Shown here: positions 19,612-55,033 of the stretch, one piece after another
How positions within the stretch are numbered: the first letter of the stretch is position 1
Layout of the letters: every line of letters starts with the position of its first letter
Assembly (NCBI GenBank): GCA_023428375.1
Contig: JAEYYR010000002.1
Span: forward strand, 302,077-366,076
Length of the DNA: 64,000 nucleotides
Direction of reading: 5' to 3'
Source: a bacterium
GTDB lineage: Bacteria > Babelota > Babeliae > Babelales > Babelaceae
Notes under the pieces: generated by a model
Seen by the model: the letters and a program-made list of their open reading frames with translations, nothing else
What the model was told of the DNA's origin: nothing
The model's database searches: none
Program-made: the position numbers and the translations under genes

Positions 19612-19923
19612 ATGAAAATATTAATTATTTTTTTTGTGGTGAGTAGGTGTTTTATATATTCAGCTGAAAAAATTTTTATTGAATGTCAAAATACCCGAAA
19701 TCAAATAATTTGGACCTTAATTGATTGTCAAAGAAGAAAAGCGTATGTAATTGAAGCCTCAAATGAAAAAATGACATATAGATTCATACGTTCTCATTCC
19801 GCTTGGCAATACAAAGGCAGGGATATTAATGCTCTGATTGATCAAATAGCTAAAGGCACGGATATGATCAATAATAGAAAACATAAACTTAATTTTTTTT
19901 GTCATATAGTAAAGTGTTCATAA
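19612..19923 (+). CDS. Small secreted protein, family A member 1
   Basis: Signal peptide MKILIIFFVVSRCFIYSA. Shares the RRKAYVIEASNEKMTYRF motif with four downstream paralogs. Confidence 0.5.
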   Translation: MKILIIFFVVSRCFIYSAEKIFIECQNTRNQIIWTLIDCQRRKAYVIEASNEKMTYRFIRSHSAWQYKGRDINALIDQIAKGTDMINNRKHKLNFFCHIVKCS

Positions 19924-20075
19924 TCTAATCCTGACGTGCCTTCTGCATAGGCTATTACATCCAAAGAAGTTTTGGGAATCTCTCTATCAAATAATGTTAT
20001 AGTGCCCTTTAGTTTTTTATAACAATTTACTATTTTAAAAGACAAAAAATCTGAATAAGTGTGAATGGAGTAACT

Positions 20076-20435
20076 ATGAAATATTTATGGTTAACGGCTA
20101 TTACGACCCATGTAGTGCTTTGTACTCAATTAGAACAAGAGATCACTATTGAGAAAATTAATAAGCAGTCGTGCACGCAATTCATTGTGACCGATCGCCA
20201 AGGCAGAAAGGCTTATATTGAAGGAGCTTCAACCCTATCGTCTTATGGCTATTATGGAGATCAATCATGGTATTATTTTGATCAATCTCTCGAGGAGCTA
20301 CGCAAACAATTTTGTTGCAATCAAGAATTTTATTCATTTTTTGATCGATTGCATGAGCATCAAAACCAAAATAATCCTTCGTTAAGGCAACAAGTAACGG
20401 GATATTTGAATTTGCTATGGCCAACACAAAAGTGA
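20076..20435 (+). CDS. Small secreted protein, family A member 2 (the track starts at a GTG at 20061)
   Basis: GGAG RBS. Signal peptide MKYLWLTAITTHVVLC. GRKAYIEGAST motif. Confidence 0.5.
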   Translation: MKYLWLTAITTHVVLCTQLEQEITIEKINKQSCTQFIVTDRQGRKAYIEGASTLSSYGYYGDQSWYYFDQSLEELRKQFCCNQEFYSFFDRLHEHQNQNNPSLRQQVTGYLNLLWPTQK

Positions 20436-20475
20436 AGTCGTTATCTGAAAAATTCCGTCTATAATCGGAGATATA

Positions 20476-20763
20476 ATGAAGTTATATTTCATATTCGCTA
20501 TACCCGTTTTATCAATCCAATGCACTGGCATGATACAATATTCAAAGCGTGATAACGCCTATTTACTTGATGACCAGGATCGGAGTATCGCTATTATCGA
20601 AAAAATAAAATCAAAAAAGGGCGAAAGAAAATATGTATTAGCCGCACATGAAACATGGCGCTATCAAAATAAAACAATGCGAGAATGGCGTACTGAATTT
20701 TCTTCAGATAAAGAATTAGTATCATTTTTCAAAAAATCATCAGTGTTGAGAATATTGAAGTAA
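20476..20763 (+). CDS. Small secreted protein, family A member 3
   Basis: GGAG RBS. Signal peptide MKLYFIFAIPVLSIQC. GERKYVLAAHETWRY motif. Confidence 0.5.
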   Translation: MKLYFIFAIPVLSIQCTGMIQYSKRDNAYLLDDQDRSIAIIEKIKSKKGERKYVLAAHETWRYQNKTMREWRTEFSSDKELVSFFKKSSVLRILK

Positions 20764-20833
20764 TTGTTTTTAAAAATATTTAATTTATCGATATAATTTT
20801 AATAATTATTATTTATATTCCTCTAAGGTTGTT

Positions 20834-21154
20834 ATGAAATATCTTTTTGCGTTCTTTTTTGCATTTGTAATTTTTAGTTCTGAAAATGATTCTTTTAAAG
20901 TTGATAAAATTCCTGCAGGCTGGATTACTTCTGCAAAGCCTCCACTTTTTTATAGTGGTGGATTCCGATTTATTGATAATAAGGGCCATAGAGCGCGAAT
21001 TGTTCAATTTACTACCAATGAATACTTGGTTTCATTTAATCCAAAGGCACAGTTTGAAATATTTGGAAAAAAAATTTCTGCATTCAGGCATCATGAATTG
21101 CCTTATTTGTATGATTTTGCAGAAAATATGTCGAAGCTCCAAAGTGAACTTTAA
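20834..21154 (+). CDS. Small secreted protein, family A member 4
   Basis: AAGGT RBS. Signal peptide MKYLFAFFFAFVIFSS. KGHRARIVQFTTNEY motif. Confidence 0.5.
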   Translation: MKYLFAFFFAFVIFSSENDSFKVDKIPAGWITSAKPPLFYSGGFRFIDNKGHRARIVQFTTNEYLVSFNPKAQFEIFGKKISAFRHHELPYLYDFAENMSKLQSEL

Positions 21155-21238
21155 TCATTTTTTATTGAAACATCGATTGACTTAAATAAGCGCTTGATTA
21201 TTCTTATCAGCTGTTATTTCGGTCAAAGGATAGTTGTT

Positions 21239-21559
21239 ATGAAAAATTTTCTTATAGTTAGTTTGATATCTTTAGTTGCATATGCATCTGAAAAGAATGA
21301 AAAATTTGATAATGGAAATCCTTATTTTGACATCGTGACTTATGTTAATACGGATACAAAGGGACATCGTGCGTTTGCTTGTGTAACCACCAGCAAGGAA
21401 GATGGGACTATTCTTAATACAACGATAAAAAAAAATAATCTTCTTTGGACCAGTTTTGATGGACAATCCCAGGAGCAAATTTCAAGCAATATTCCATTAA
21501 TCATGTGGACATGGCTGGAAAAACGTTATAAAGATACGCATCTAGAAGAAAAGCAATAA
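21239..21559 (+). CDS. Small secreted protein, family A member 5 (the track starts at a TTG at 21194)
   Basis: AAGGA RBS. Signal peptide MKNFLIVSLISLVAYAS. KGHRAFACVTTSKEDG motif. Confidence 0.5.
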   Translation: MKNFLIVSLISLVAYASEKNEKFDNGNPYFDIVTYVNTDTKGHRAFACVTTSKEDGTILNTTIKKNNLLWTSFDGQSQEQISSNIPLIMWTWLEKRYKDTHLEEKQ

Positions 21560-23034: not shown

Positions 23035-24117
23035 ATGCGACGATTATCAAATGCAATTTCATTATTAATAATTATCGCTGCATTACTCACCTGTATTGGG
23101 CTTATTGGAATTTATTCTTCAAGCTCCGTATTTGCCATGGAGCGTTTTGGTTCTGCCGATTTTTTTCTAAAGAAACAGTTGGTTGGATTGGTTTTAGGAT
23201 TGCTCGCAGCATTATTTTGTGCATATATTCCTTCGCACATGATTCAAAAATTAACACCCATTTTTTATGTAGGGTCATTGTTTTTGACTATTGCCACGCT
23301 AATACCTGGCGTTGGTATGCATATTCATGGATCGCAACGATGGCTACGATTGGGATTTTTTGCTTTTCAGCCCAGTGAATTACTCAAAGTTGCTACTATT
23401 TTGTACGGGGCATTTTTGTTATCTAAACACCACTTAGAACTTAATACATTTCGCAAAGGTTTGTTGCCAGTACTGTGTATTACGGGGATAACATGCATTA
23501 CATTGCTCTTGCAACCAGACTTTGGGCAAGCCGTTGCCATTGGAAGCACTATGCTCATTATGGCTTTTATCGCTGGGGTGCAAATGAAGGCGTTAGCATA
23601 CATAGCATTACCTACGATACCAATGGTGTGTATGTTGGTGTATTTAAAAGCCTATCGTTTTAAACGTATTTTAATTTTCTTGAATCCATGGGCGGATCCG
23701 CAAGGCTCAGGATTTCAAATCATTCAGAGTTTAATAGCTATTGGTTCTGGGGGATGGTTTGGGCTTGGAATTGCCCAATCTAAACAGAAGTTTTTTTATT
23801 TGCCGATGCAGCATACTGATTTTATTTTTTCCATCATTGCGGAAGAAACAGGAATTGTAGGATCGTTGTTTATAGTATTTCTGTATTGTGCGTTGTTATA
23901 TGCGGGAATCCGCGTTGCAAGACATGCAAAAAGTACGTTTGCGTATTTAGTGATTGTGGGATGTATTACGTTATTGAGTTTGCAAGCTGTGTTGAATATT
24001 TGTGTAGTGACAGGCCTACTCCCAACTAAGGGAATAGGCCTGCCATTTATAAGCTATGGTAAGTCAGCACTCATTGTCGATTGGCTTATGATCGGCTTGA
24101 TCGCTGGTCTTTTTTGA
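23035..24117 (+). CDS. ftsW: SEDS-family cell division protein FtsW
   Basis: Ten-TM SEDS protein (GSQRWLRLGFFAFQPSELLK; FIFSIIAEETG). Lies downstream of murD. The track start at 22990 is a TTG; the first ATG is at 23035. Confidence 0.8.
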   Translation: MRRLSNAISLLIIIAALLTCIGLIGIYSSSSVFAMERFGSADFFLKKQLVGLVLGLLAALFCAYIPSHMIQKLTPIFYVGSLFLTIATLIPGVGMHIHGSQRWLRLGFFAFQPSELLKVATILYGAFLLSKHHLELNTFRKGLLPVLCITGITCITLLLQPDFGQAVAIGSTMLIMAFIAGVQMKALAYIALPTIPMVCMLVYLKAYRFKRILIFLNPWADPQGSGFQIIQSLIAIGSGGWFGLGIAQSKQKFFYLPMQHTDFIFSIIAEETGIVGSLFIVFLYCALLYAGIRVARHAKSTFAYLVIVGCITLLSLQAVLNICVVTGLLPTKGIGLPFISYGKSALIVDWLMIGLIAGLF

Positions 24118-25027
24118 AATCATTAGCCATTTTAAATAAATCTTTCTGAGTTTTGTTAAGAGTAGATTTATTATATGCTGGTGTTGTTAGCAATTTTTTA
24201 GCAAGTAAGTTTGATATATGGACTGATGATGTCGATTCTATTTCTTGCTTTTTAAAGAGGTTATATACTATGTCTGCAAAGACGCCCATGCTCGTTTGAT
24301 GCTGAGGTTTATAGCCTTGAGCCATTATTTTTTGAACCAGGCTAGATTGTTGAAATTCTTTAATCGATTTTGACTGACGCTCTGTATAAACATTATTTGC
24401 AATTGCCGTAACAGCTTCTTCATCTAAAGACTTAGATCTATCGATATTGAACATTATTTCGCGTTTAGCAGTTTCGCATGCTATCAATAATTTTTCAGTT
24501 CTATCTTCTTTCAACGCTAATGTTTCAGCGAACGAATAAATTTCAGAATTTTTTGCATTCACTTTTTCTAAGATAATATTTTGCGCTTTTAATTGATCAT
24601 TGCAGTCTTGTTGCCAATCACTTAATCCGGAGTTGATCTTGTATATTTCGCCTTCGACTCTTTCTTTGGTGCTTTGATCAATATGTGTTTTTATTTTTTG
24701 ATCGCAATCTTTTGCCCAATTACTAAAATCACTTTCGAATTGAACATAAGTAGAATTGAATTTTTCTTCAAGAGATGCGACCTTTTCTTGTGTTGCTGTA
24801 ATTTTTGTTTCACAACTACAGGTATTTGTTGAAGTTTGTTTTTGGTTGTTCTTTTTGATCATATACCAACAACCAGTCCAAGAAGCAGCTATTGTGCCAA
24901 GTCCAATTGATAAATTTGTAGCATTTTGTCCAATCCATGATTGTACTGATGCTATGAAATTTTCATCAGCATGCATCAATGGCTGAATGCTTAATAATAA
25001 GAATACTAAATAATGTAATGTTTTCAT
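24086..25027 (-). CDS. Membrane-anchored coiled-coil protein (paralog trio member)
   Basis: Signal peptide MKTLHYLVFLLLSIQPLMHA, then a S.WI motif, a TM segment and a long heptad-rich region. Its 3' end overlaps the ftsW 3' end by 32 nt. Confidence 0.5.
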   Translation of the reverse strand: MKTLHYLVFLLLSIQPLMHADENFIASVQSWIGQNATNLSIGLGTIAASWTGCWYMIKKNNQKQTSTNTCSCETKITATQEKVASLEEKFNSTYVQFESDFSNWAKDCDQKIKTHIDQSTKERVEGEIYKINSGLSDWQQDCNDQLKAQNIILEKVNAKNSEIYSFAETLALKEDRTEKLLIACETAKREIMFNIDRSKSLDEEAVTAIANNVYTERQSKSIKEFQQSSLVQKIMAQGYKPQHQTSMGVFADIVYNLFKKQEIESTSSVHISNLLAKKLLTTPAYNKSTLNKTQKDLFKMANDFKKDQRSSRS

Positions 25028-25830
25028 TATTTTTTCCCCATTATTGTAAAAAATTTGTCTAATTTATGATCTAATAGTTCAAGATCTATTGCGTTAAAAG
25101 TGTTATCATAATGTTTGCTAATTGTATCAGTTACTGATTTCTTAAATGCAAACATTTGTTTGTTGTTATCTTTTACAAATGACTCATACTCATCAATTAT
25201 TCTGTTCATTCCATCTATTTGTGATTGCTCTAATGAATCAATTCTTTTTTGTAATTTCGAATTAGTCCTTTTTAGTGATATAAATTCAGATACAAGTATC
25301 TGATTCTGTGCCATTTTATTAAGAGTGAATGAAGAATTACTAATCTGATTTTGTAAGTTGAGCGTTGATCTATTTATTCTATTATTTAAATTAGTTACTT
25401 TTTTTTGGGTTTTCCATGATTGAGATTCAAAAGCGTTTATGCGAGAATTTTGCTTGAGTGTCGCAGCTTCGAGATCTCTTATCTTAAAATTATTTGAAAC
25501 ATGATATAGTTGGAGCATGGCATTTGTATCTTCAAGCTCACATTTTTGCTCGGTATGCGAGGCTTTTAATTCTTTAAGATCTGTTTTATATTTTTCTAAT
25601 TTTTGTCGTTGAATTCTTGATTGTTTCTTTAATTTTTTTACTTGCGAATTTAATGTGTTTAAATCCGTAACTTCATCTGAGTCATCAGATATAAGATAAA
25701 GCAGGGATGTAAATGTCACAAAACCTAATGCTGGTTTTATCCAGCCACTAATCGTATTAAAGAGATTGTTTTCTGCCGATATATGATTAAATGGCAAAGC
25801 TACAGCAAGAATTAATATAAACTTTTTCAT
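25027..25830 (-). CDS. Membrane-anchored coiled-coil protein (paralog trio member)
   Basis: Signal peptide MKKFILILAVALPFNHISA and NTISGWIKPALGFVTFTSLLYLI, then coiled coil. 1-nt overlap with the downstream gene. Confidence 0.5.
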   Translation of the reverse strand: MKKFILILAVALPFNHISAENNLFNTISGWIKPALGFVTFTSLLYLISDDSDEVTDLNTLNSQVKKLKKQSRIQRQKLEKYKTDLKELKASHTEQKCELEDTNAMLQLYHVSNNFKIRDLEAATLKQNSRINAFESQSWKTQKKVTNLNNRINRSTLNLQNQISNSSFTLNKMAQNQILVSEFISLKRTNSKLQKRIDSLEQSQIDGMNRIIDEYESFVKDNNKQMFAFKKSVTDTISKHYDNTFNAIDLELLDHKLDKFFTIMGKK

Positions 25831-25973
25831 ATTTCACCTACAATCTATTACTTGAATTTATTTTATCATAATAGAAATATTTCACAATGTTTATACTGTA
25901 AATATAGGCTTTTTTCAGATAAAGAGGGATTTTGCATTGAAATATTATTAGTTTTTTATGTTTACTAATAGAT

Positions 25974-26007
25974 GGATGATTGTGAGATAACTAAATCACA
26001 ATCATCC
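25974..26007. promoter_or_regulatory. Perfect 12-bp inverted repeat (GGATGATTGTGA-n10-TCACAATCATCC) in an intergenic region
   Basis: Read directly. Lies upstream of the 25830 start and downstream of the 26028 stop. No T-run follows, so this is more operator-like than terminator-like. Confidence 0.4.
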
Positions 26008-26027
26008 CAAGGATGTAAGATTAGCTG

Positions 26028-26507
26028 TTATATATTTTTATTTTGTTTCTCAAAAATATGTACTACATAATCGCCAATTGAAGCATTATGGTCATTGCCA
26101 TATTTAGTATTAAGATGTTTAGCAAGATATTGTTGGCTCAATACATAAGATTTTATGGCAAAAACTTCTTCTTGCATTTGACTCAATGAATTAATCTCAT
26201 TTTCGCACCATGTGAAAAAGATTGGATGCGCCAATGATAAAGCCTTGCTTTTCTGAAATAATGTCCATTTAGGCAAAGTATTTTTTTCGTTTTTGTTTTT
26301 GAGAGATATAACTTCATTTTTTAAGTTTTGTATTTCTTTGCTTTTTTGGTAATCATGATAAAAAAGATAGCTGAACCCCAATCCTATAGCGCCACCATAT
26401 AGTGTTTGGGGTGTTGCACATTCAAGCAATTTGGTGCAGTAATCAAAAAAATTAGCTTGAAGTGATGAGATGAAAACTAATGAAATAATACAATATTTGT
26501 TTAACAT
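26028..26507 (-). CDS. Membrane-anchored coiled-coil protein (third trio member)
   Basis: Signal-like MLNKYCIISLVFISSLQA, then GGAIGLGFSYLFY and a coiled-coil segment EIQNLKNEVISLKNKNEKN. Confidence 0.45.
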   Translation of the reverse strand: MLNKYCIISLVFISSLQANFFDYCTKLLECATPQTLYGGAIGLGFSYLFYHDYQKSKEIQNLKNEVISLKNKNEKNTLPKWTLFQKSKALSLAHPIFFTWCENEINSLSQMQEEVFAIKSYVLSQQYLAKHLNTKYGNDHNASIGDYVVHIFEKQNKNI

Positions 26508-28283: not shown

Positions 28284-28637
28284 ATGGTATTGTATCTAAT
28301 CTTTTTCGTAACGTGCTTTGCTGGTTGTTCTGATGGAATTGTAAGGCGTCCAGAAGACGATGGCGTGAGGGTAATGTATGAAAATGACAAGTATAGAGCT
28401 TTAAGGAATAGTGGCTTAGGCACCTACATGGTAGCTGAAAAGTATGTCGATGCTGATAATGTATTGCAGTTCAGAAGAATTGCAAACAGAGATAAGGCTC
28501 GCGCTATTTTTGATGAACTAGAAAATGAATTTAATTCTTATGGTCCCAGCGAGATGTACGCCAAAGAAAAAGATGCGTATGGGGAGCATGATTTGCCCTC
28601 TGGAATAGATTATCCAAAAAATGAAAATAATTCTTAA
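28284..28637 (+). CDS. Small secreted protein or lipoprotein, family B member 1
   Basis: GGAG RBS. Signal/lipobox-like FFVTCFAGCS. C-terminal IFDELENEFNSYGP motif plus an acidic tail. Confidence 0.5.
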   Translation: MVLYLIFFVTCFAGCSDGIVRRPEDDGVRVMYENDKYRALRNSGLGTYMVAEKYVDADNVLQFRRIANRDKARAIFDELENEFNSYGPSEMYAKEKDAYGEHDLPSGIDYPKNENNS

Positions 28638-28759
28638 TTAAGAAACAAGAGTCTTTTTTTTTGATTGTTTACATTCTCAATCTGAATATATATAGCGTTA
28701 TGAGCTTTATTTAGAGTATTCTATTTTATGAATAACTTTAAATTGTGTGTGGTATTCCT

Positions 28760-29134
28760 ATGAATAGATCGATATTTTTTTTAACATTTCTAATGATTAT
28801 GACTTTTACTAGTTATACACAGGATAAACCGACCGTAATATTTAAACATAATAATGGATGGGATATTCTGATTAAGGGACCGATAACCGCTTCATATAAC
28901 TTGAAAACTGGCGAAATTAATGCTTCAGAAATGAAAGTCTTAATGGTCAATAATAGAAGATCGCTTTTTTATCCTCAGCAATTAAATAATGCTTATGAAA
29001 TTTATAATCAACTATTAGATGAATATGAACTAAGAGATCATGGCCCTATTGAACGTTTTGCGGATGAAAGAGAGCCTAATGCTTTTTCTTATCGAGATGA
29101 TGAACCGCAAGAATATCAAAACGTTAATAATTAA
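28760..29134 (+). CDS. Small secreted protein, family B member 2 (the track starts at a GTG at 28745)
   Basis: Signal peptide MNRSIFFLTFLMIMTFTSYT. ITASYNLKTGEINAS core and C-terminal IYNQLLDEYELRDHGP motif. Confidence 0.5.
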   Translation: MNRSIFFLTFLMIMTFTSYTQDKPTVIFKHNNGWDILIKGPITASYNLKTGEINASEMKVLMVNNRRSLFYPQQLNNAYEIYNQLLDEYELRDHGPIERFADEREPNAFSYRDDEPQEYQNVNN

Positions 29135-29141
29135 TGAGTAT

Positions 29142-29495
29142 ATGATGAATAAATATCTAATTATTGCTCTAAGTTTTTCTATAACCATTGCTTCTTATGC
29201 ATCAGAAGAAATTACCTATAAAAAAAATAATTGTGTTAATACATTCAAAAAAGGTTCTTTGATTGTGCAGCATGACGAATGCAATAATTTATTCCAAGCG
29301 TTTATGGAAAAAATAACAAAGATTATTGATGATAATGGCATGTTACATTTTAAGCGCGAAATAATCAAACAAGAACAATTAAATGCACAAAAGATTTATT
29401 GGGATCTCTACGACGCTTATTTGATAAATCAAGCAAGAGAACCTAACGAAATTGAAACAAATATAACAGAGGTATCATATGATGAAAATTATTAA
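29142..29495 (+). CDS. Small secreted protein, family B member 3 (the track ORF 29040 extends upstream without support)
   Basis: ATG at 29142 follows the stop of member 2. Signal peptide MMNKYLIIALSFSITIASYA. IYWDLYDAYLINQAREPNE motif. Confidence 0.45.
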   Translation: MMNKYLIIALSFSITIASYASEEITYKKNNCVNTFKKGSLIVQHDECNNLFQAFMEKITKIIDDNGMLHFKREIIKQEQLNAQKIYWDLYDAYLINQAREPNEIETNITEVSYDENY

Positions 29496-29805
29496 AAATA
29501 TTCTAGTCTGTGCGGCAATACTATCTCTCAATGCTGCAGATAATGACAATGATAATAATATGGTTCAAGGAACATATAATCCAACTAATAGGGAAACAAC
29601 ATATACGTTTAATAATATCAAGGCCAGCCATATACCGCCAAATATTTATGAAGCATTTGAAATACAACCTTCAAACAGGAATTTTCAAAGATTGATGGCT
29701 TTAGAGGATCCAGAGAAGCGTTATCGCTTTTTAGAACAAATGTTTCAAGCGCAGAATGAACCAAATGAACAAAAAGAAAATTTAGAGCCGGATGAACTTG
29801 AATAA
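29479..29805 (+). CDS. Small secreted protein, family B member 4
   Basis: GAGGT RBS. Signal peptide MMKIIKNILVCAAILSLNA. RYRFLEQMFQAQNEPNE motif and an acidic tail. Confidence 0.5.
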   Translation: MMKIIKNILVCAAILSLNAADNDNDNNMVQGTYNPTNRETTYTFNNIKASHIPPNIYEAFEIQPSNRNFQRLMALEDPEKRYRFLEQMFQAQNEPNEQKENLEPDELE

Positions 29806-29819
29806 ATTTAGGAAATATT

Positions 29820-30164
29820 ATGAAGCTATTTAAAATGTATATCATTGTCTTTTTACTTGCTGCGCATATATATGCAGCAGATGACTCAGCTGAATGGGGA
29901 GAGCCTGGAATTTATCGTATTAAACAAAACTCAAAAATTACTTATACCAAAATACAGCCAAAAGGGCTCAAGATTGTTGCTAAATATGACGATCTATTAA
30001 AGAAATACTCTGCATATGAAGTTACTTTATATCGTGGCGAAGAAGTAGAAGATCGTTTAAAGAATCCTGAGAAAATATATCATAATTTAGAGCAAGAATT
30101 TATTAATTCTCAAGATCCATTAGAAATTGAGCATGATATTAAACAGCCCGACGAATTTATGTAA
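29820..30164 (+). CDS. Small secreted protein, family B member 5
   Basis: Signal peptide MKLFKMYIIVFLLAAHIYA. IYHNLEQEFINSQDPLEIE motif. Confidence 0.5.
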   Translation: MKLFKMYIIVFLLAAHIYAADDSAEWGEPGIYRIKQNSKITYTKIQPKGLKIVAKYDDLLKKYSAYEVTLYRGEEVEDRLKNPEKIYHNLEQEFINSQDPLEIEHDIKQPDEFM

Positions 30165-30188
30165 AATATTTTAACGCTAAGGTAAAAT

Positions 30189-30554
30189 ATGATTAAATTT
30201 TCTATTTTAAGAAGATTAAGGTTTGTTTTTATCAGTTATTTTTTGGTATCTTCTGTAATTTGTTTTGATGCTGGTGTAAGAAAGTATGAAGACTCTCAAA
30301 GCATTACCTTTGAAAATGAATTTATTGTTGCATCATACGATAAATCAAATGGCACTTATAAAGTATCACTCAAACCACGTGCGCGATCAATAGGTGGATT
30401 TGAAAAATGGCATTTGGATGATCCAATGGATCATTATTTGCGCTTGAAAGACCAATACGAATTGCAGTTGGATAGTGAAGAAATGGAACCAAAGGATCCT
30501 GAAGAGACTGAAGAATTTAAAATATATCGACACCTTGGTCAAAACGAAAATTGA
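30189..30554 (+). CDS. Small secreted protein, family B member 6
   Basis: Hydrophobic N-terminus. IVASYDKSNGTYKVS core aligns with member 2. HYLRLKDQYELQLD motif plus an acidic tail. Confidence 0.5.
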   Translation: MIKFSILRRLRFVFISYFLVSSVICFDAGVRKYEDSQSITFENEFIVASYDKSNGTYKVSLKPRARSIGGFEKWHLDDPMDHYLRLKDQYELQLDSEEMEPKDPEETEEFKIYRHLGQNEN

Positions 30555-30749
30555 ACTAATTAAAAAATTAGTATGAAAATATTCTTTTAAGTAACATACT
30601 AGTTGTCTTTTTTTTATTAATCCTATACAATATTTAAAATAGTATTTCTATTTAGTACTTCTCATTTAATTTCTTATCTCTGCGGTGTAGATAAGCTTCA
30701 GTAGTTAATTTTCTTAGTTTTCCCATTTTCTACACCAGGGGGATGCACC

Positions 30750-31337
30750 ATGCTCTTTGCATCCATTAATTCATATTATTTAACGAATCTGTATTGGATA
30801 CTCGCTGTCATCGGTACGACATTATTTGGTTTACGTATGTCGCTTATGCTCCTTGGTGGGTTTATCGATTTTCATCATGATGATGGACATCATGGTCATA
30901 CGCATGATACTTCATCTTCTTTGAAGATCATTACGCTTCATTCACTTTCCGGATTTTGCATGATGTTTGGTTGGGCGGGTCTTGCAGCATCTGAGCAACT
31001 CGGATTATCAAATGGTTATTCATTATTAATAGCCTGTATCAGTGGTTTTGTTGTCATGATCTGTGCTGCATTTTTATTTAAATGTGCGCAAAAGTTGGAA
31101 GCTTCGGGGGCGCACTTTGCAATACAACAAACGCTTGGGAAGACCGGGATGGTGTATCATGCTATTCCTGCACATGGTTTAGGAAAAATTCATATAAATG
31201 TGCATGGTATTACTCGTGAACTTCTGGCGCAATCGTTAACGAATGAATCTATTGAGTCGTTTGAAGCAATTAAAGTTATTAACATTATCGATCAAGAAAC
31301 GGTGCTAGTCGTTTTATTGAGAAAGGAACAACCATGA
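30750..31337 (+). CDS. NfeD-like (YuaF-type) membrane protein, partner of flotillin
   Basis: N-terminal TM helices, a His-rich loop (HHDDGHHGHTHD) and a C-terminal beta-rich soluble domain. 4-nt overlap with the downstream SPFH gene, as in the yuaF-floT operon. Confidence 0.6.
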   Translation: MLFASINSYYLTNLYWILAVIGTTLFGLRMSLMLLGGFIDFHHDDGHHGHTHDTSSSLKIITLHSLSGFCMMFGWAGLAASEQLGLSNGYSLLIACISGFVVMICAAFLFKCAQKLEASGAHFAIQQTLGKTGMVYHAIPAHGLGKIHINVHGITRELLAQSLTNESIESFEAIKVINIIDQETVLVVLLRKEQP

Positions 31338-32668
31338 TTAACTTCATTGCAGTCGGCGCTTTCTGTGCCGCATTATTTATTTTTTTCACACTTTTTTTCT
31401 TGGCAAGTTGTTACAAGCGTTGTCCGTCAAATAAAGTGTTAGTTGTGTATGGTAATCTAATCGGAAACAAATCCGCCCATTGTTATCACGGTGGCGGTAA
31501 ATTTGTATGGCCACTTATTCAAGATTATGAATATTTAGATTTGACACCCATGGCTATTCATGTGCCCCTCAAATCAGCATTATCTCAGCAGAATATTCGT
31601 ATTAACGTACCAAGCACTTTTACCGTTGCGCTTGATACTACGCCAGAAGCTATGAACAATGCAGCGATTCGTTTGCTTGGGCTTTCATTGCGTGATATTG
31701 AAATGATGGCAACAGAAATCATTATTGGTCAGTTACGTTTGACTGTTGCATCATTGCGCATTGAAGAAATTAACCAAGATCGCGAAAGATTCTTGTCGGA
31801 AATTAGAAAACATATCGAACCAGAACTGAAAAAAATTGGTTTGATGCTTTTAAACGTTAATATTACCGATATCACGGATGAATCAAATTATATAGAAAGT
31901 ATTGGCCGTAAATCAGTAGCAACCGCAGTTAACCAAGCAAAAATTGATGTTTCTGAACAAGAAAAACTTGGTGAGATCGGTAGAGCATTTGCTGATCGTG
32001 AAAAGCGTATTCAGGTAGCAGCACAAAACGCTGAAGCAGTGCAAGGTGAAAATGAAGCAAAAGCACGCATTGCACAAGTAAATGCGCAATTATCCGAGCA
32101 AGAAGCCGAAGCAGAACGTAGAAGTTTGATTGCCTTGCAGAATGCCTATGCTGAAATTAATACCTCAAAAGCTCATGTTGAATTGAAGCGTTTAGAAGCA
32201 GAAGAAATTGTACCGAAAGAAATTGAAAAACGAAAAATCGAAATCGATGCGATGGCCCAAGCTGAAAAGCAAAAGATTGATGCATATGCACAAGCAGCAT
32301 CGATTCTTGCAATCAAAGAAGCGGAAGCTGAAGGTATTTTAAAGGTGTTGAATGCAAAAGCGCAGGGTTATAAAATGCTTGTTGATGCATGCGCGGGCAA
32401 TACGCAAGATGCTGCAACCATGCTCATGGTTGAAAAACTTGAAGAGATTGTAAAACTCCAAACGGAAGCAATCAAAAATATTAAGATTGATAAAGTTACC
32501 GTATGGGATAGCGCCAATGGAGACTCAAGTTCAACCGCTAATTTCTTAAGTAATTTGGTTAAATCGTTACCACCATTACATGAAATTACTGAAATGTCCG
32601 GTGTTAAATTACCAGAATATTTAGGTAATCTCACCAAAAATAATAAAGAAATAATAAAAGAATCATAG
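31334..32668 (+). CDS. floT: Flotillin-like SPFH/band-7 protein
   Basis: N-terminal TM, then an SPFH domain and a long Ala/Glu-rich coiled-coil region (EAEAERRSLIALQNAYAEI; AEAEGILKVLNAKAQGYK) typical of FloT/YuaG. Confidence 0.85.
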   Translation: MINFIAVGAFCAALFIFFTLFFLASCYKRCPSNKVLVVYGNLIGNKSAHCYHGGGKFVWPLIQDYEYLDLTPMAIHVPLKSALSQQNIRINVPSTFTVALDTTPEAMNNAAIRLLGLSLRDIEMMATEIIIGQLRLTVASLRIEEINQDRERFLSEIRKHIEPELKKIGLMLLNVNITDITDESNYIESIGRKSVATAVNQAKIDVSEQEKLGEIGRAFADREKRIQVAAQNAEAVQGENEAKARIAQVNAQLSEQEAEAERRSLIALQNAYAEINTSKAHVELKRLEAEEIVPKEIEKRKIEIDAMAQAEKQKIDAYAQAASILAIKEAEAEGILKVLNAKAQGYKMLVDACAGNTQDAATMLMVEKLEEIVKLQTEAIKNIKIDKVTVWDSANGDSSSTANFLSNLVKSLPPLHEITEMSGVKLPEYLGNLTKNNKEIIKES

Positions 32669-32687
32669 TTTAACATTGCGATCATTC

Positions 32688-32716
32688 AAAAGCGGCTTTT
32701 TAGCCGCTTTTTTTTA
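32688..32716 (+). terminator. Rho-independent terminator of the nfeD-floT operon
   Basis: AGCGGCT-tttt-AGCCGCT hairpin plus a T9 run. Confidence 0.65.
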
Positions 32717-32827
32717 TTGTTTTAAGTCGCGATATTTCAGTATAGTTATAATGAAAATAGAAATATTATAACGCTGTGTTTTCTATGTTTACTAATAAAA
32801 AAATTTGATAATAGAAATAGGAATTAT

Positions 32828-33115
32828 ATGAATACCTTTAATATTTTTTTATCGATACTTGCAATGATATCTCTGTATATCTCTGCCAATGATTTAGATG
32901 ATATCGTATTTAAAGTTTCAAGTGCTGGTATTGTAATTTATTGTGACAGTCGTATTTGTGCCGCCTATGATAGTACCGATAATTCTTATCAAGCAATGGA
33001 CATACGAGATTCTGGTATGCCCCGTCTCGAGAATGCGAAAATGTTTTTTGATAATCTCAAAGAACGTTTTTATAATCAAGGTCCTTTAATATTTGAACAG
33101 TCTCAAAAAGAATAA
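32828..33115 (+). CDS. Small secreted protein, family B member 7
   Basis: Signal peptide MNTFNIFLSILAMISLYISA. FFDNLKERFYNQGPL motif matching member 1. Confidence 0.45.
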   Translation: MNTFNIFLSILAMISLYISANDLDDIVFKVSSAGIVIYCDSRICAAYDSTDNSYQAMDIRDSGMPRLENAKMFFDNLKERFYNQGPLIFEQSQKE

Positions 33116-33120
33116 AAACG

Positions 33121-34476
33121 TTATCTCATATAAGTGAATAAAGTCTTTAAACAGTGATCACTCGTTGGTTTTTGACCCATAAGATATTCATTTCTTTTAG
33201 GTTTGATTGAACAATGTTCTTTATAAACATTTTTATACAAGCACCAGAGGGCCATTTTATTTACATCATTCATAAAGGTATATGAATAATTTTTAAATAT
33301 TCTGCGTTCTGATTTTTCTTTTGGATGTATTGACAGCACTATCGCATCTCGCTTTGCCTTTTTGTAACCCCATTCGGCTTCCATATCCTGATTTTGAGCC
33401 ACAAGCATAGCGCCAGAAGGAGTTGTAGCACCTTTTTCAAAAAGACCATACAAAACAGAATTATCTTTTTCGGTATCTAGTACATTATAACATTCTCGAT
33501 ATAAGTTGAATTTTTCAATAGTATATAAGTGAGCATTTTGTAAAAAATGCTGTAAAAATAATTGTTTATTTTCAGTTATAGGTCGTGATTCATATTCTGG
33601 ATAGTTTTGGTTTGGATGTTTTAAAAACTCTCGTAAAGCAATTTTTTCATCCGCAGATTCTTTTGATAAGTATTTAAATAGGCCTAGAAACTTTTGCTGC
33701 TGATAAACATTAAAAGTAACATAATTAATTTCGCTTTCTTCATTTATGTTTGTTTTTAAATCACACGTTAATTCGTACATGAGTGGATTATTATAACTTT
33801 GTAAAAGTTGCACATGTCGACGCAGCGTTTCTTTCGTCTTTTTAATTACCTGGTCTTTATACACATCTTTCAATGTAGGATTTAAATAAATAGAAACAAC
33901 AGGAACACTTGGGTGATTAATGCTGGAATAACAGCCACCTCTATAATTTTGTAATAAAGGTGTCCATGAAACATAGGCGAATATCTCCATGCCATTATGA
34001 ACAAAACATTGATCATAGATACAGGTTACTGCTTTAACACCTTGTGGGTAACTATACGTTTTAAGCTCTTCTTTAAGATAAAAGACATTCTTTTCGTCTC
34101 TTACTTTTGTCAGTTCGCTTTCCCACCCTCCTTGGGAGGCGCAGCCATGAATACAGCAATCGTAGCAAAGATAGTCGTCAAATTTTATAGTTGGTTGGTA
34201 GTATTGTAACCAAGGACGGACTTCTGTGTGCCATTTTTGTGTGCGTTCATCCAACGTAATACGTCGTGTATGTCCCATATGTGTTGGTTCCATCTTGATA
34301 ACAGAGCGATCAAAAAGAAGATAGGGAATATGTTTATTTGATGAGCCAAAGTTGCAAATAGAGCGTTTGAAATTTCCAAATGTTTCTAATATCGATAGGT
34401 ATCGACCACTCAAGGCAGCATCATGAGAAAGTGTGTTATTAGCTATAAGGAACAATAAAAAATATATATAAATCAT
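33121..34476 (-). CDS. Hypothetical Cys-rich secreted protein (451 aa), no domain recognised
   Basis: Signal-like MIYIYFLLFLIANNTLS. Numerous Cys (YLCYDCCIHGCASQGGWE; CIYDQCF). No motif I can assign. Confidence 0.5.
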   Translation of the reverse strand: MIYIYFLLFLIANNTLSHDAALSGRYLSILETFGNFKRSICNFGSSNKHIPYLLFDRSVIKMEPTHMGHTRRITLDERTQKWHTEVRPWLQYYQPTIKFDDYLCYDCCIHGCASQGGWESELTKVRDEKNVFYLKEELKTYSYPQGVKAVTCIYDQCFVHNGMEIFAYVSWTPLLQNYRGGCYSSINHPSVPVVSIYLNPTLKDVYKDQVIKKTKETLRRHVQLLQSYNNPLMYELTCDLKTNINEESEINYVTFNVYQQQKFLGLFKYLSKESADEKIALREFLKHPNQNYPEYESRPITENKQLFLQHFLQNAHLYTIEKFNLYRECYNVLDTEKDNSVLYGLFEKGATTPSGAMLVAQNQDMEAEWGYKKAKRDAIVLSIHPKEKSERRIFKNYSYTFMNDVNKMALWCLYKNVYKEHCSIKPKRNEYLMGQKPTSDHCLKTLFTYMR

Positions 34477-34554: not shown

Positions 34555-34866
34555 TTATAGTCCGAATCCAAACCCAAAACCAAATCCTGGACGACCATAA
34601 TAACCCCCGTAATAACCATACGGATACCCATAGCCATAACCGCCATAAAATCCACCATAAGGATAGCCGTATCCATAGGGATAACCATAGGTTACATAGG
34701 GAGCATAGCGAGGATATGAAACGTAGCGACGTTCATAGACTGGTCGTTCAACAACGCGTCGACGTACTACGCGCTTGGTTGGCTGCGTTCTCCGCACAAC
34801 GCGCGTGTCGGCATGGAGTTGAGTAATACATACGAGAATCGTTAGTAATTGTAAGAGAAATTTCAT
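34555..34866 (-). CDS. Secreted Gly/Tyr-rich low-complexity protein
   Basis: Signal peptide MKFLLQLLTILVCITQLHA, then an RVVRR basic repeat region, then YGYPYGYGYPYGGFYGGYGYGYPYGYYGGYYGRPGFGFGFGFGL. ATGA overlap with the upstream hydrolase gene. Confidence 0.5.
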   Translation of the reverse strand: MKFLLQLLTILVCITQLHADTRVVRRTQPTKRVVRRRVVERPVYERRYVSYPRYAPYVTYGYPYGYGYPYGGFYGGYGYGYPYGYYGGYYGRPGFGFGFGFGL

Positions 34867-35897: not shown

Positions 35898-36437
35898 TTA
35901 TCTCAATATGCGTCTATAATGCGCTAATCTTGAGCGAAAAAAGGTTGTTAGCTCATTAAGCTTTTTAGTGGGTTGTCCATAGGGTGATCCTGGAAAAGAG
36001 GCCCACATTCTATTCAATTTCATAATCGCTTTTTCGGGATTATTGTTGAGAATATCGCCTAAAGCACCTTTGGTTTTAATAACTTCTAAAGCAGCGCGAT
36101 CCTGGTTTTTTGGGGTAAAATCCCGTGCATCGATGCTTAACGCCAAATCATCCCATGTACGTTCTAAAAAGTGATATCTTCCAGCAGCAGATGAACAAAG
36201 CTGCCTTCCGCGCGAAGGGGCTGCAATGACGATACGAGGATGGTCCTCAAAGCTATCAAACAAGTCGCCGCCAAAATGCATGCGATAGCCATCAGGTCCA
36301 TAAGTTCCCTCGGCATAGGCTATTACATCCAAAAATGCGCGCACAGCAGGATGATTAAGATAATATGAGGCGGTATCGCGTGTTAAAAGAGTGGTGCAGA
36401 ATAGAAGGGATATGCACCCGATGTGTCTCACTGTCAT
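35898..36437 (-). CDS. Hypothetical secreted protein; weak lysozyme-like (GH108-type EG..D..GG) resemblance
   Basis: Hydrophobic N-terminus. AYAEGTYGPDGYRMHFGG is reminiscent of the EGGY..D..GG block of GH108 muramidases. Weak, from memory only. Confidence 0.3.
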   Translation of the reverse strand: MTVRHIGCISLLFCTTLLTRDTASYYLNHPAVRAFLDVIAYAEGTYGPDGYRMHFGGDLFDSFEDHPRIVIAAPSRGRQLCSSAAGRYHFLERTWDDLALSIDARDFTPKNQDRAALEVIKTKGALGDILNNNPEKAIMKLNRMWASFPGSPYGQPTKKLNELTTFFRSRLAHYRRILR

Positions 36438-53822: not shown

Positions 53823-54644
53823 TTATTTAGTCAGTGGAATCAACGGTAGGGTGCTACCACCAGCCACTTGAGGCAATCTGCCATCCCATTTTTCAATCGC
53901 TTTAATCTGAGCTTCAATTTCTTGAAGTTTAATCAATTCTTGCGTCACGGCAGCTTTTCGAGCATTTAATGAATATGCTTCAGCGTCTGCGCGTGTCTTG
54001 GTTTGTACCGCTTCTTCTTTGATCTTTTCGGTCAAATTTTTAGCTTGTTTTGCATGTTGTTCAGCAATCTGTTTTTCTTCAACTGCTTTGATAAACTCTT
54101 TAGAAAAATCTAAATGAGTAAAGTTGAAGTCAACAAGCTCGATGTAGCGGGTAGCAAATCGTTCTGCAAGTTCTTTGATTACCATGTCTTTTGCTTCATG
54201 ACGACGTTGGATCAAATCTTCTGCCGTAAATTTTGCAACAACTGACTTCAAAGTTTCTTGGGTGAATGGATCAATAATAATCGTCTCATATTGTGTGCCA
54301 ATTTCTTGGTACAGTAATAATGGATTTTTTATGCGATAATTGACCACCATTCCTACCGATACTGGTTGTAAGTCTTTAGACATTGCCAGCGTTTCAATAT
54401 CAGGAAATGCTTTACGAATTCTGAGGTCCATAGGCACAACGGAATCTACAAACGGAATTTTGGAGTAAAATCCAGGATTAGTTTCAGCTTTTAGAATGCG
54501 ACCAAGTCGAATTTGTAAGGCACATTGCCCGGGATTAACCGTATAAAATGCTTCGTTCCACAGGAGCGCAATGCTCAATGCAGCAAGTACAAAAGTAATG
54601 AGAAAAAATGGTACGTATGAACGTTCATTGTGTGTGTTGTACAT
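53823..54644 (-). CDS. SPFH/band-7 protein (prohibitin/HflC-like)
   Basis: N-terminal TM (FFLITFVLAALSIALLW), an SPFH core, and a C-terminal coiled coil (EQHAKQAKNLTEKIKEEAVQTKTRADAEAY). Confidence 0.75.
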   Translation of the reverse strand: MYNTHNERSYVPFFLITFVLAALSIALLWNEAFYTVNPGQCALQIRLGRILKAETNPGFYSKIPFVDSVVPMDLRIRKAFPDIETLAMSKDLQPVSVGMVVNYRIKNPLLLYQEIGTQYETIIIDPFTQETLKSVVAKFTAEDLIQRRHEAKDMVIKELAERFATRYIELVDFNFTHLDFSKEFIKAVEEKQIAEQHAKQAKNLTEKIKEEAVQTKTRADAEAYSLNARKAAVTQELIKLQEIEAQIKAIEKWDGRLPQVAGGSTLPLIPLTK

Positions 54645-54669: not shown

Positions 54670-55033
54670 TTAAATGTCTTTAGGGCTTTTTTCTTTAGGA
54701 ATACAACTTTTTTGGTAAAGTTCTTTTAGTTGATTGTATCTGTTTTTTGGGTCAACGAGTGATAACCAAGATGCTCGTCCATTATGACGTGCAATATAAT
54801 AAGACGATGCTGTATAGAGCTGTGTAGCAGAATCGTAAGATGCTTTATTGGTTGTGGTTTCGTATCTTGTAACAGAGCCTTCAACATACATGTGAATGCC
54901 GGGATCTCTCTGTTTCTTAGCTAATGCTGTAGGGTTAACAGGATTTAAGCCGGGGAGTTCTCAAGTTTCTGTCTGAAGTTACAATGCTCATAGGAAGCAT
55001 TAAAACGAGGAGTGATGTATTCAGATTAAACAT
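54670..55033 (-). pseudogene. Small secreted-protein gene split by a frameshift at a CCCC run (authentic pseudogene, phase-variable, or sequencing error)
   Basis: ORF a (55033-54935) encodes the signal peptide MFNLNTSLLVLMLPMSIVTSDRNL. ORF b (frame offset by 1, open 54960-54670) continues ..LNPVNPTALAKK..YVEGSVTRYETTT. The frames overlap across GGGG/CCCC at 54952-54955. Confidence 0.35.

Follow-up and report, generated by a model that had tools for sequence, protein, structure and literature searches.

Dependentiae are widespread intracellular parasites of protists. To our knowledge, next to nothing is known of their action on the host, and for a large part of the proteins that they export no function has been assigned. 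NfeD proteins are the canonical operon partners of SPFH/flotillin genes, as with YuaF and FloT in Bacillus subtilis. In Chromulinavorax destructans, a cultured member of the Dependentiae, signal peptides are carried by 44% of coding sequences, with ORFans over-represented among these; the same work (PMC6561590) documents that the phylum lives inside host cells, and components of type II secretion have been placed among the core genes of the Dependentiae (PMC4776705). The present analysis concerns a 64,000-nucleotide (nt) stretch of the metagenome-assembled genome of an uncultured member of the Babeliales (family Babelaceae, GenBank assembly GCA_023428375.1, contig JAEYYR010000002.1, positions 302,077 to 366,076; hereafter the window, to which all coordinates refer unless another locus is named), in which a first-pass annotation had described seven small secreted proteins flanking an nfeD-floT operon. 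These seven open reading frames (ORFs), designated m1 to m7, form a true protein family together with a frameshifted eighth member, m8. We give a probability of about 0.5 to the reading that they are clade-restricted small exported binding modules acting at the parasite envelope or host interface, derived from old tandem duplications in a variable island.

All seven ORFs were found on the forward strand at the starts that had been reported for them, encoding 95-124 amino acids (aa), and the C-terminal strings quoted in the first-pass annotation are present verbatim. As pairwise BLASTP similarity between members was weak (21-37% identity), the family was scored with profiles. In leave-one-out searches, run against every stop-to-stop ORF that the AT-rich window contains (204 in all), the omitted member was always ranked above every non-member ORF. 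The E-values were 1e-5 to 4e-11 at full length and, after removal of the signal peptide, 5e-3 to 1e-8; the top unrelated ORF had E >= 0.07. Furthermore, when 500 composition-preserving shuffles of each mature member were scored by the profile of the others, all seven mature members (7/7) outscored every one of their own shuffles, at 13.7-34.9 bits against shuffle maxima of 7.8-13.2 bits and shuffle means near 0-1 bits. The weakest result was that of m1 (13.7 bits, its best shuffle reaching 11.8) and the strongest that of m5 (34.9 bits). As both the leave-one-out searches and the shuffle test were passed, it was concluded that the shared motif is not an artefact of AT-rich coding. Under formal alignment scoring, then, every member beat both its shuffles and the unrelated ORFs, and the proposal of a genuine, tandemly expanded family was upheld. 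The opposing explanation, that the ORFs are not genes or that their similarity is a by-product of AT-rich composition, can draw on the weak BLASTP similarity between members. It is contradicted, however, by the profile and shuffle results, by the retention of members in other genomes with omega (dN/dS) below 1, by AlphaFold2 models that are confident and mutually consistent, and by the fact that the family genes were called by the gene callers of three sources; this explanation, now scarcely conceivable, is already refuted by the tests run.

Six of the genes form an array in front of nfeD-floT. The first of them, m1 (28284-28637, +; 117 aa), is also the most divergent member (leave-one-out E = 1.5e-5), and carries a lipobox-like FAGC at residues 12-15 and an acidic tail of 34 aa. 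It is followed by m2 (28760-29134, +; 124 aa; E = 5e-9), which has a signal peptide, a beta4-alpha core, an alternative GTG start at 28745 and the sequence REPNA in its acidic tail, and by m3 (29142-29495, +; 117 aa; E = 5e-7), in which the loop between strand 4 and the helix is longer, the tail contains REPNE and the gene overlaps m4 by 17 nt. The tails of m4 (29479-29805, +; 108 aa; E = 1e-6) and m5 (29820-30164, +; 114 aa; E = 4e-11) read NEPNE...LEPDELE and QDPLE...KQPDEFM, respectively. The final array gene 5' of nfeD-floT is m6 (30189-30554, +; 121 aa; E = 2e-8), with an acidic, disordered tail of 31 aa, and m7 (32828-33115, +; 95 aa; E = 8e-7) lies downstream of floT, has a short, non-acidic tail and is convergent with a 451-aa gene. 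Spacing within m2-m6 is 7, -17, 14 and 24 nt; larger intervals separate m1 from m2 (122 nt), m6 from nfeD (195 nt) and floT from m7 (159 nt). The ribosome-binding site that had been attributed to each ORF of the array was seen as a clear Shine-Dalgarno-like purine run for five of the seven, but not for m2 and m3. The count of seven holds for these ORFs, but the total for the window is eight once m8 is added.

A signal peptide had been ascribed to every member, and a signal-peptide-like N-terminus was indeed found throughout by a simple rule-based check for a short N-region, a hydrophobic core of at least about 10 residues, small residues at -3/-1 and a polar mature N-terminus. Each of the 29 full-length members from five genomes (29/29) possesses an N-terminal hydrophobic stretch ending at about residue 20-25 with small residues at -3/-1; the maximum 10-residue Kyte-Doolittle mean is 2.1-3.6, and AXA-like sites fall at about residues 15-25. 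Only the FAGC of m1 comes close to the lipoprotein lipobox [LVI][ASTVI][GAS]C, the other window members having no suitably placed Cys.

The structure of the core was predicted with AlphaFold2. For mature m7, modelled from a 21-sequence alignment, a predicted local distance difference test (pLDDT) score of 85.8 and a predicted template modelling score of 0.72 were obtained for a chain of four antiparallel strands (E8-12, E15-19, E23-28 and E33-38) followed by one helix (H50-63). Mature m6 modelled with its tail gave the same core (E5-8, E12-16, E20-25, E30-35 and H53-71; pLDDT 79.5), with the last ~24 residues disordered and a tail pLDDT of about 50. Two independent models thus agree on a beta4-alpha core, and the ~60-aa core is confidently predicted to be a four-stranded antiparallel sheet with a packed C-terminal amphipathic helix. 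The C-terminal motif of the first-pass annotation, [IY][FY]..L...[FY], proved alignable and maps to one face of the C-terminal helix of the core, with its positions spaced i, i+1, i+4 and i+8, and the [GE]P that completes it lies just past the helix. Further conserved positions, I.A.Y in strand 3 and Y.A in strand 4, alternate along the strands.

The acidic tail, claimed for the whole family, is present in m1-m6 (net charge -4 to -8) but not in m7 (net -1) or m8. Long acidic tails of 19-42 aa and net charge -4 to -12 are found at array positions 1-6 in the window and in two related loci (L005 and L041, introduced below), and most of the tails at these positions bear a second motif, [RK]-[EDQ]-P-[DEN]-E; in the window, its looser form [RK]-x-P-[DEN]-E is seen in m2-m5, with a near-match in m6. 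The tails are short, and not conspicuously acidic, in the members encoded downstream of floT, in m8 and in the members of two further loci (L042 and L043).

In keeping with the statement that the proteins match no known family, searches of Pfam, NCBIfam, PDB sequences and solved structures all ended without a significant match. The best Pfam or NCBIfam E-value for the seven window members was 0.03, all matches being far under the cut-offs; across 21 members, no Pfam or NCBIfam family was matched by more than one. The best profile match among PDB sequences had E = 2, and the fold search of solved structures gave no significant match to the core. Below significance, the C-terminal subdomain of arylsulfatases and the periplasmic domain of YejM/PbgA, both of the alkaline-phosphatase superfamily, were returned by Foldseek at E >= 0.06 and 5-17% identity. 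In those proteins, however, the matching element forms one subdomain within an enzyme of 350-550 aa, whereas the family members are free-standing, exported and without a catalytic domain, and the likeness is probably that of a generic beta-meander-plus-helix arrangement. NfeD proteins such as B. subtilis YuaF resemble the family in being small proteins encoded beside an SPFH gene, but they consist of membrane helices and a C-terminal OB-fold, whereas a signal peptide and a beta4-alpha core characterise the family members, which show no NfeD match. Ivy, PliC/MliC and ecotin, small inhibitor proteins of the Gram-negative periplasm, share with the family a similar size, Sec export and a single globular domain; they were, however, absent from the fold-search matches and have no sequence match to it, and their order of strands and helices probably differs from that of the family core. 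The ORFans of C. destructans come from the same phylum and are also Sec signal-peptide proteins without recognisable homologues, but they were treated in bulk as a class, with ankyrin-repeat proteins highlighted, and the present family, its fold, tandem array and tail motif were not described there (PMC6561590).

The distribution of the family was established with HMMER, by which 1.84 billion representative proteins were searched exhaustively at E <= 1e-3. Word-indexed homologue searches with profiles of 8 and 25 sequences brought back little but self hits, as the 5-mer filter of such searches does not cope with the divergence of the family. Of the 21 matches, 8 came from the window and 2 were tetratricopeptide-repeat (TPR) false positives, the rest being small exported proteins of 79-174 aa. 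The building of a profile and the search of metagenomes that had been suggested for the family yielded about 19 small exported proteins with a narrow distribution, those examined in their genomic context belonging to four related metagenomic genomes, and all members found for the window genome (8/8) lie inside the window. The two TPR-repeat proteins (P0016 and P0021) match the profile, at E = 2.6e-5 and 3.8e-4, through repeats that resemble the helix motif, and the C-terminal motif alone is therefore not specific.

Members were found in four other metagenomic genomes (L005/L128, L041/L126, L042, which is the genome of L129, and L043), and of the four matches whose contigs were examined, three lie in syntenic loci and the fourth in a different setting. 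In L005, whose floT is 94% identical to that of the window, at least 5 members, one of them a remnant, stand before nfeD-floT and 3 after it; in this sister genome only, the m6 orthologue and nfeD are separated by an inserted BclA_C (C1q/TNF-like) gene, at L005 1838-2569. In L042, with a floT (partial) 95.5% identical, four members follow floT, and in L041, recognised by a pepA 86% identical, eight members form one unbroken array and nfeD-floT is missing. L043 holds three family genes beside a Fic gene. One of these (P0013, L043 3462-3986) is a 174-aa exported fusion of two family domains with the Fic-domain gene adjacent, and no SPFH gene is close to it on the 13.8-kb contig. The flotillin of the window is 73-79% identical to those of metagenome-assembled genomes labelled Babeliales or Dependentiae. 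By these searches, the family is restricted to a narrow clade of Babeliales (Dependentiae) and is previously undescribed.

Rapid divergence of the family, as had been proposed, was borne out by comparison with the sister genome. Between the window and L005, family orthologues are 36-69% identical, as against 94% for floT, 93% for the adjacent hydrolase and 87% for the next downstream gene (35898-36437). The m3 orthologue (P0014) is 44-45% identical and the m4 orthologue (P0007) 67-69% identical with an omega of about 0.1; the counterpart of m5 in L005 is a truncated remnant (L005 1101-1319). Nei-Gojobori omega values of orthologues were 0.1-0.5 and are rough, because dS exceeds 1 and is saturated. 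As dN/dS is below 1, there is no signal of positive selection, and the family genes appear to be constrained by purifying selection yet fast-evolving, like the neighbouring 451-aa exported ORFan. Recent duplication at the DNA level was looked for in the array and no repeats were found, so the tandem duplications are old. Array copy numbers are 6+1 in the window, at least 5+3 in L005, 8 uninterrupted in L041 and at least 4 in L042, and these differences, the L005 remnant and the m8 frameshift together indicate continuing turnover. The island that holds the array is variable and lies downstream of pepA, an arrangement observed in two genomes.

The eighth member was found with the profile of the seven sequences, from whose training set m8 was absent, through a match to the ORF at 54670-54960 (-) with E = 4e-9. 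The whole of m8 spans 54670-55033 on the reverse strand. Its signal-peptide part, which has a good ribosome-binding site, extends from ATG 55033 as far as a stop at 54935, and its core lies in another frame at 54670-54960; deletion of one C of the C4 run at 54952-54955 rejoins the two parts into a protein of about 120 aa. The frameshift is identical in two assemblies, and an intact orthologue of 104 aa is present in L128 (E = 3e-12 by a profile excluding m8). The split, within 54935-54960 and at or near the C4 run, marks m8 as a young pseudogene or else reflects a homopolymer error. The end of m8 is 25 nt upstream of a prohibitin/HflC-like SPFH gene (53823-54644, -; 273 aa), which carries Band_7 in the precomputed Pfam annotation and whose relatives are named prohibitin family or HflC. 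The order uvrA, family member, prohibitin-like gene is seen in three genomes (window, L128 and L126), the copy in L126 being a diverged 88-aa gene (E = 0.03-0.0005) with a hairpin between it and its SPFH gene.

The SPFH operon enclosed by the array begins with an nfeD-like gene (30750-31337, +) that encodes a 195-aa membrane protein, overlaps floT by 4 nt and is not a member of the family. It gave no Pfam NfeD hit at E <= 1, and its sole PDB sequence match was YuaF (2k14) at E = 1; it is found directly upstream of floT in 27 loci of Babeliales, Planctomycetota and other phyla. The label nfeD is therefore backed by conserved position upstream of floT and the weak YuaF match, but not by Pfam, and the gene may belong to a divergent NfeD subfamily overlooked by current models. 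The 444-aa product of floT (31334-32668, +), a FloT-like SPFH protein, matches Pfam Band_7 at 6.6e-27 and the NCBIfam FloT model at 2.5e-43; because its score of 148.8 bits is under the equivalog cut-off of 700 of that model, it is termed flotillin-like. A promoter-like sequence (TTGTCT-17-TACAAT, 30603-30631) precedes nfeD, and an intrinsic-terminator-like hairpin with a 10-bp stem followed by a T run (32688-32711, +) lies between floT and m7. This strong terminator makes co-transcription of m7 with floT improbable. In the m6-nfeD interval, no terminator was detected.

The association with flotillin noted in the first-pass annotation was found in the window, L005 and L042, in all of which nfeD-floT interrupts the array at one shared point, with orthologue group 6 before it and group 7 after it, and the association gained unexpected support from m8, since the second family locus also adjoins an SPFH gene. 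It does not extend to the L041 array, which is without floT, or to the 12 other Babeliales floT loci, which are without a member. It was considered whether the family might comprise extracytoplasmic partners, regulators or clients of SPFH scaffolds (flotillin/NfeD and prohibitin/HflC-like), the adjacency reflecting a shared function in membrane microdomains or protease cages. In its most specific form, which we think improbable, a new class of extracytoplasmic proteins would engage the flotillin/NfeD or prohibitin/HflC-like cage from the periplasmic side through the core or the proline-acidic tail motif. Such a role would account for the position of both family loci of the window beside SPFH genes, for the enclosure of nfeD-floT by the array in three genomes, for the m8 arrangement and its repetition in L128 (with the diverged gene in L126), and it could also draw on the m6-nfeD interval without a detected terminator. 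Each adjacency, however, is a single inherited event (n = 2), and the range of SPFH genes is far wider than that of the family. Among 35 floT loci of GTDB genomes no family member was found, and the 12 Babeliales loci included in these (floT 73-79% identical) showed no synteny with the window; nor did a scan around relatives of the prohibitin-like gene (<= 62% identical) reveal a member at any of 80 metagenomic loci. In addition, L041 retains eight array genes and no floT, L129 (the L042 genome) and L127 carry the prohibitin-like gene without a member, the L043 members stand in an unrelated context, and terminators follow floT and, in L126, separate the small gene from the SPFH gene. A functional tie between the family and SPFH scaffolds was consequently judged unlikely. 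The nfeD-like/floT pair is a self-contained unit in many phyla, and nfeD-floT is most likely a separate transcription unit within the array, its position being an accident of rearrangement in a plastic region and not a sign of shared function. A late insertion of floT into an older array, first suggested by L041, is only one possibility: distances of flanking proteins group the window with L005 and give no clear outgroup position for L041 relative to L042, so that floT may either have entered the array or have been lost from it in L041.

The reading of the family as small exported binding modules would begin with Sec export, the proteins then acting in the periplasm, at the surface of the cell or, with the help of the phylum's type II system, outside it. 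Passage beyond the outer membrane is possible, since type II secretion genes are core in the phylum. At the envelope or host interface, the paralogues would then make up a set of small binding modules, in which the core-like positions are conserved and the remaining sequence is free to vary, leading to different specificities, and the tail motif shared by the upstream members would dock a common partner. That motif may mimic a eukaryotic short linear motif and so dock a host protein. Its likeness to acidic eukaryotic docking motifs is loose, and chance matches are to be expected in acidic tails. The label 'effector or immunity-like' that had been attached to the family is an analogy only; in the gene content of the array, no toxin-like gene alternates with the array genes and no toxin-immunity pair was seen, the PADLOC library not having been searched.

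A different function for exported proteins of this kind would be that of periplasmic inhibitors or decoys, which shield the parasite envelope from lysosomal hydrolases of the host (lysozymes and proteases), with paralogues tuned to different enzymes. The members are small, acidic, exported single-domain proteins whose sequence varies outside the conserved positions, envelope genes are abundant nearby (murD, ftsW, VanY and exported hydrolases), and members of the phylum are documented to live within cells (PMC6561590); on the other side, no catalytic partner is encoded alongside and analogy is the only basis for the proposal, which we regard as a doubtful alternative. The preferred reading, of small exported binding modules from old duplications, itself has several points to contend with. 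The signal-peptide calls on which export depends were made by simple rules, the conserved positions look like core residues facing the helix by their spacing, and the omega values behind the argument for constraint are affected by saturation of dS. The placement of floT in the array may be ancestral, with loss in L041, in place of a late insertion, and the contact of both family loci of the window genome with an SPFH gene is unlikely by chance and is left unexplained by that reading. At present, this is a well-defined, narrowly distributed family of interest mainly to workers on Dependentiae, for whom it provides a concrete handle on the exported proteome: a confidently predicted small domain without a close structural relative, a tail motif and a record of duplication and loss. 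If its members turn out to have the host or SPFH scaffolds as their target, they would offer a new tool for either question.

Other exported genes were noted in the window. The 451-aa exported ORFan convergent with m7 (33121-34476, -) has no family match; L005 and L041 have counterparts with 45% and 27% identity, respectively, and L042 has no match. The ORFan is one more fast-changing gene of this island. Beyond it, a 103-aa exported protein made up mostly of Gly/Tyr repeats (YGYGYPYG...) is encoded at 34555-34866 (-), with a 4-nt overlap of the start of an alpha/beta-hydrolase gene. L041 and L042 have genes of equal size at this position, of which only that of L042 aligns, weakly (49% over 61 aa), and the L005 version is longer, at 239 aa. 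A second tandem family lies just upstream of murD at 19612-21559 (+), where five signal-peptide proteins of 103, 119, 95, 106 and 106 aa have the motif D.(K/Q)G.R(A/K)(Y/F) in common; its inclusion in the m1-m8 family was rejected on an hhalign profile-profile probability of 0.2%. Between ftsW and pepA, at 24086-26507 (-), three consecutive signal-peptide proteins (313, 267 and 159 aa) had no family match in the precomputed annotation, and the 313- and 267-aa proteins among them are rich in Lys, Glu, Gln and Asn.

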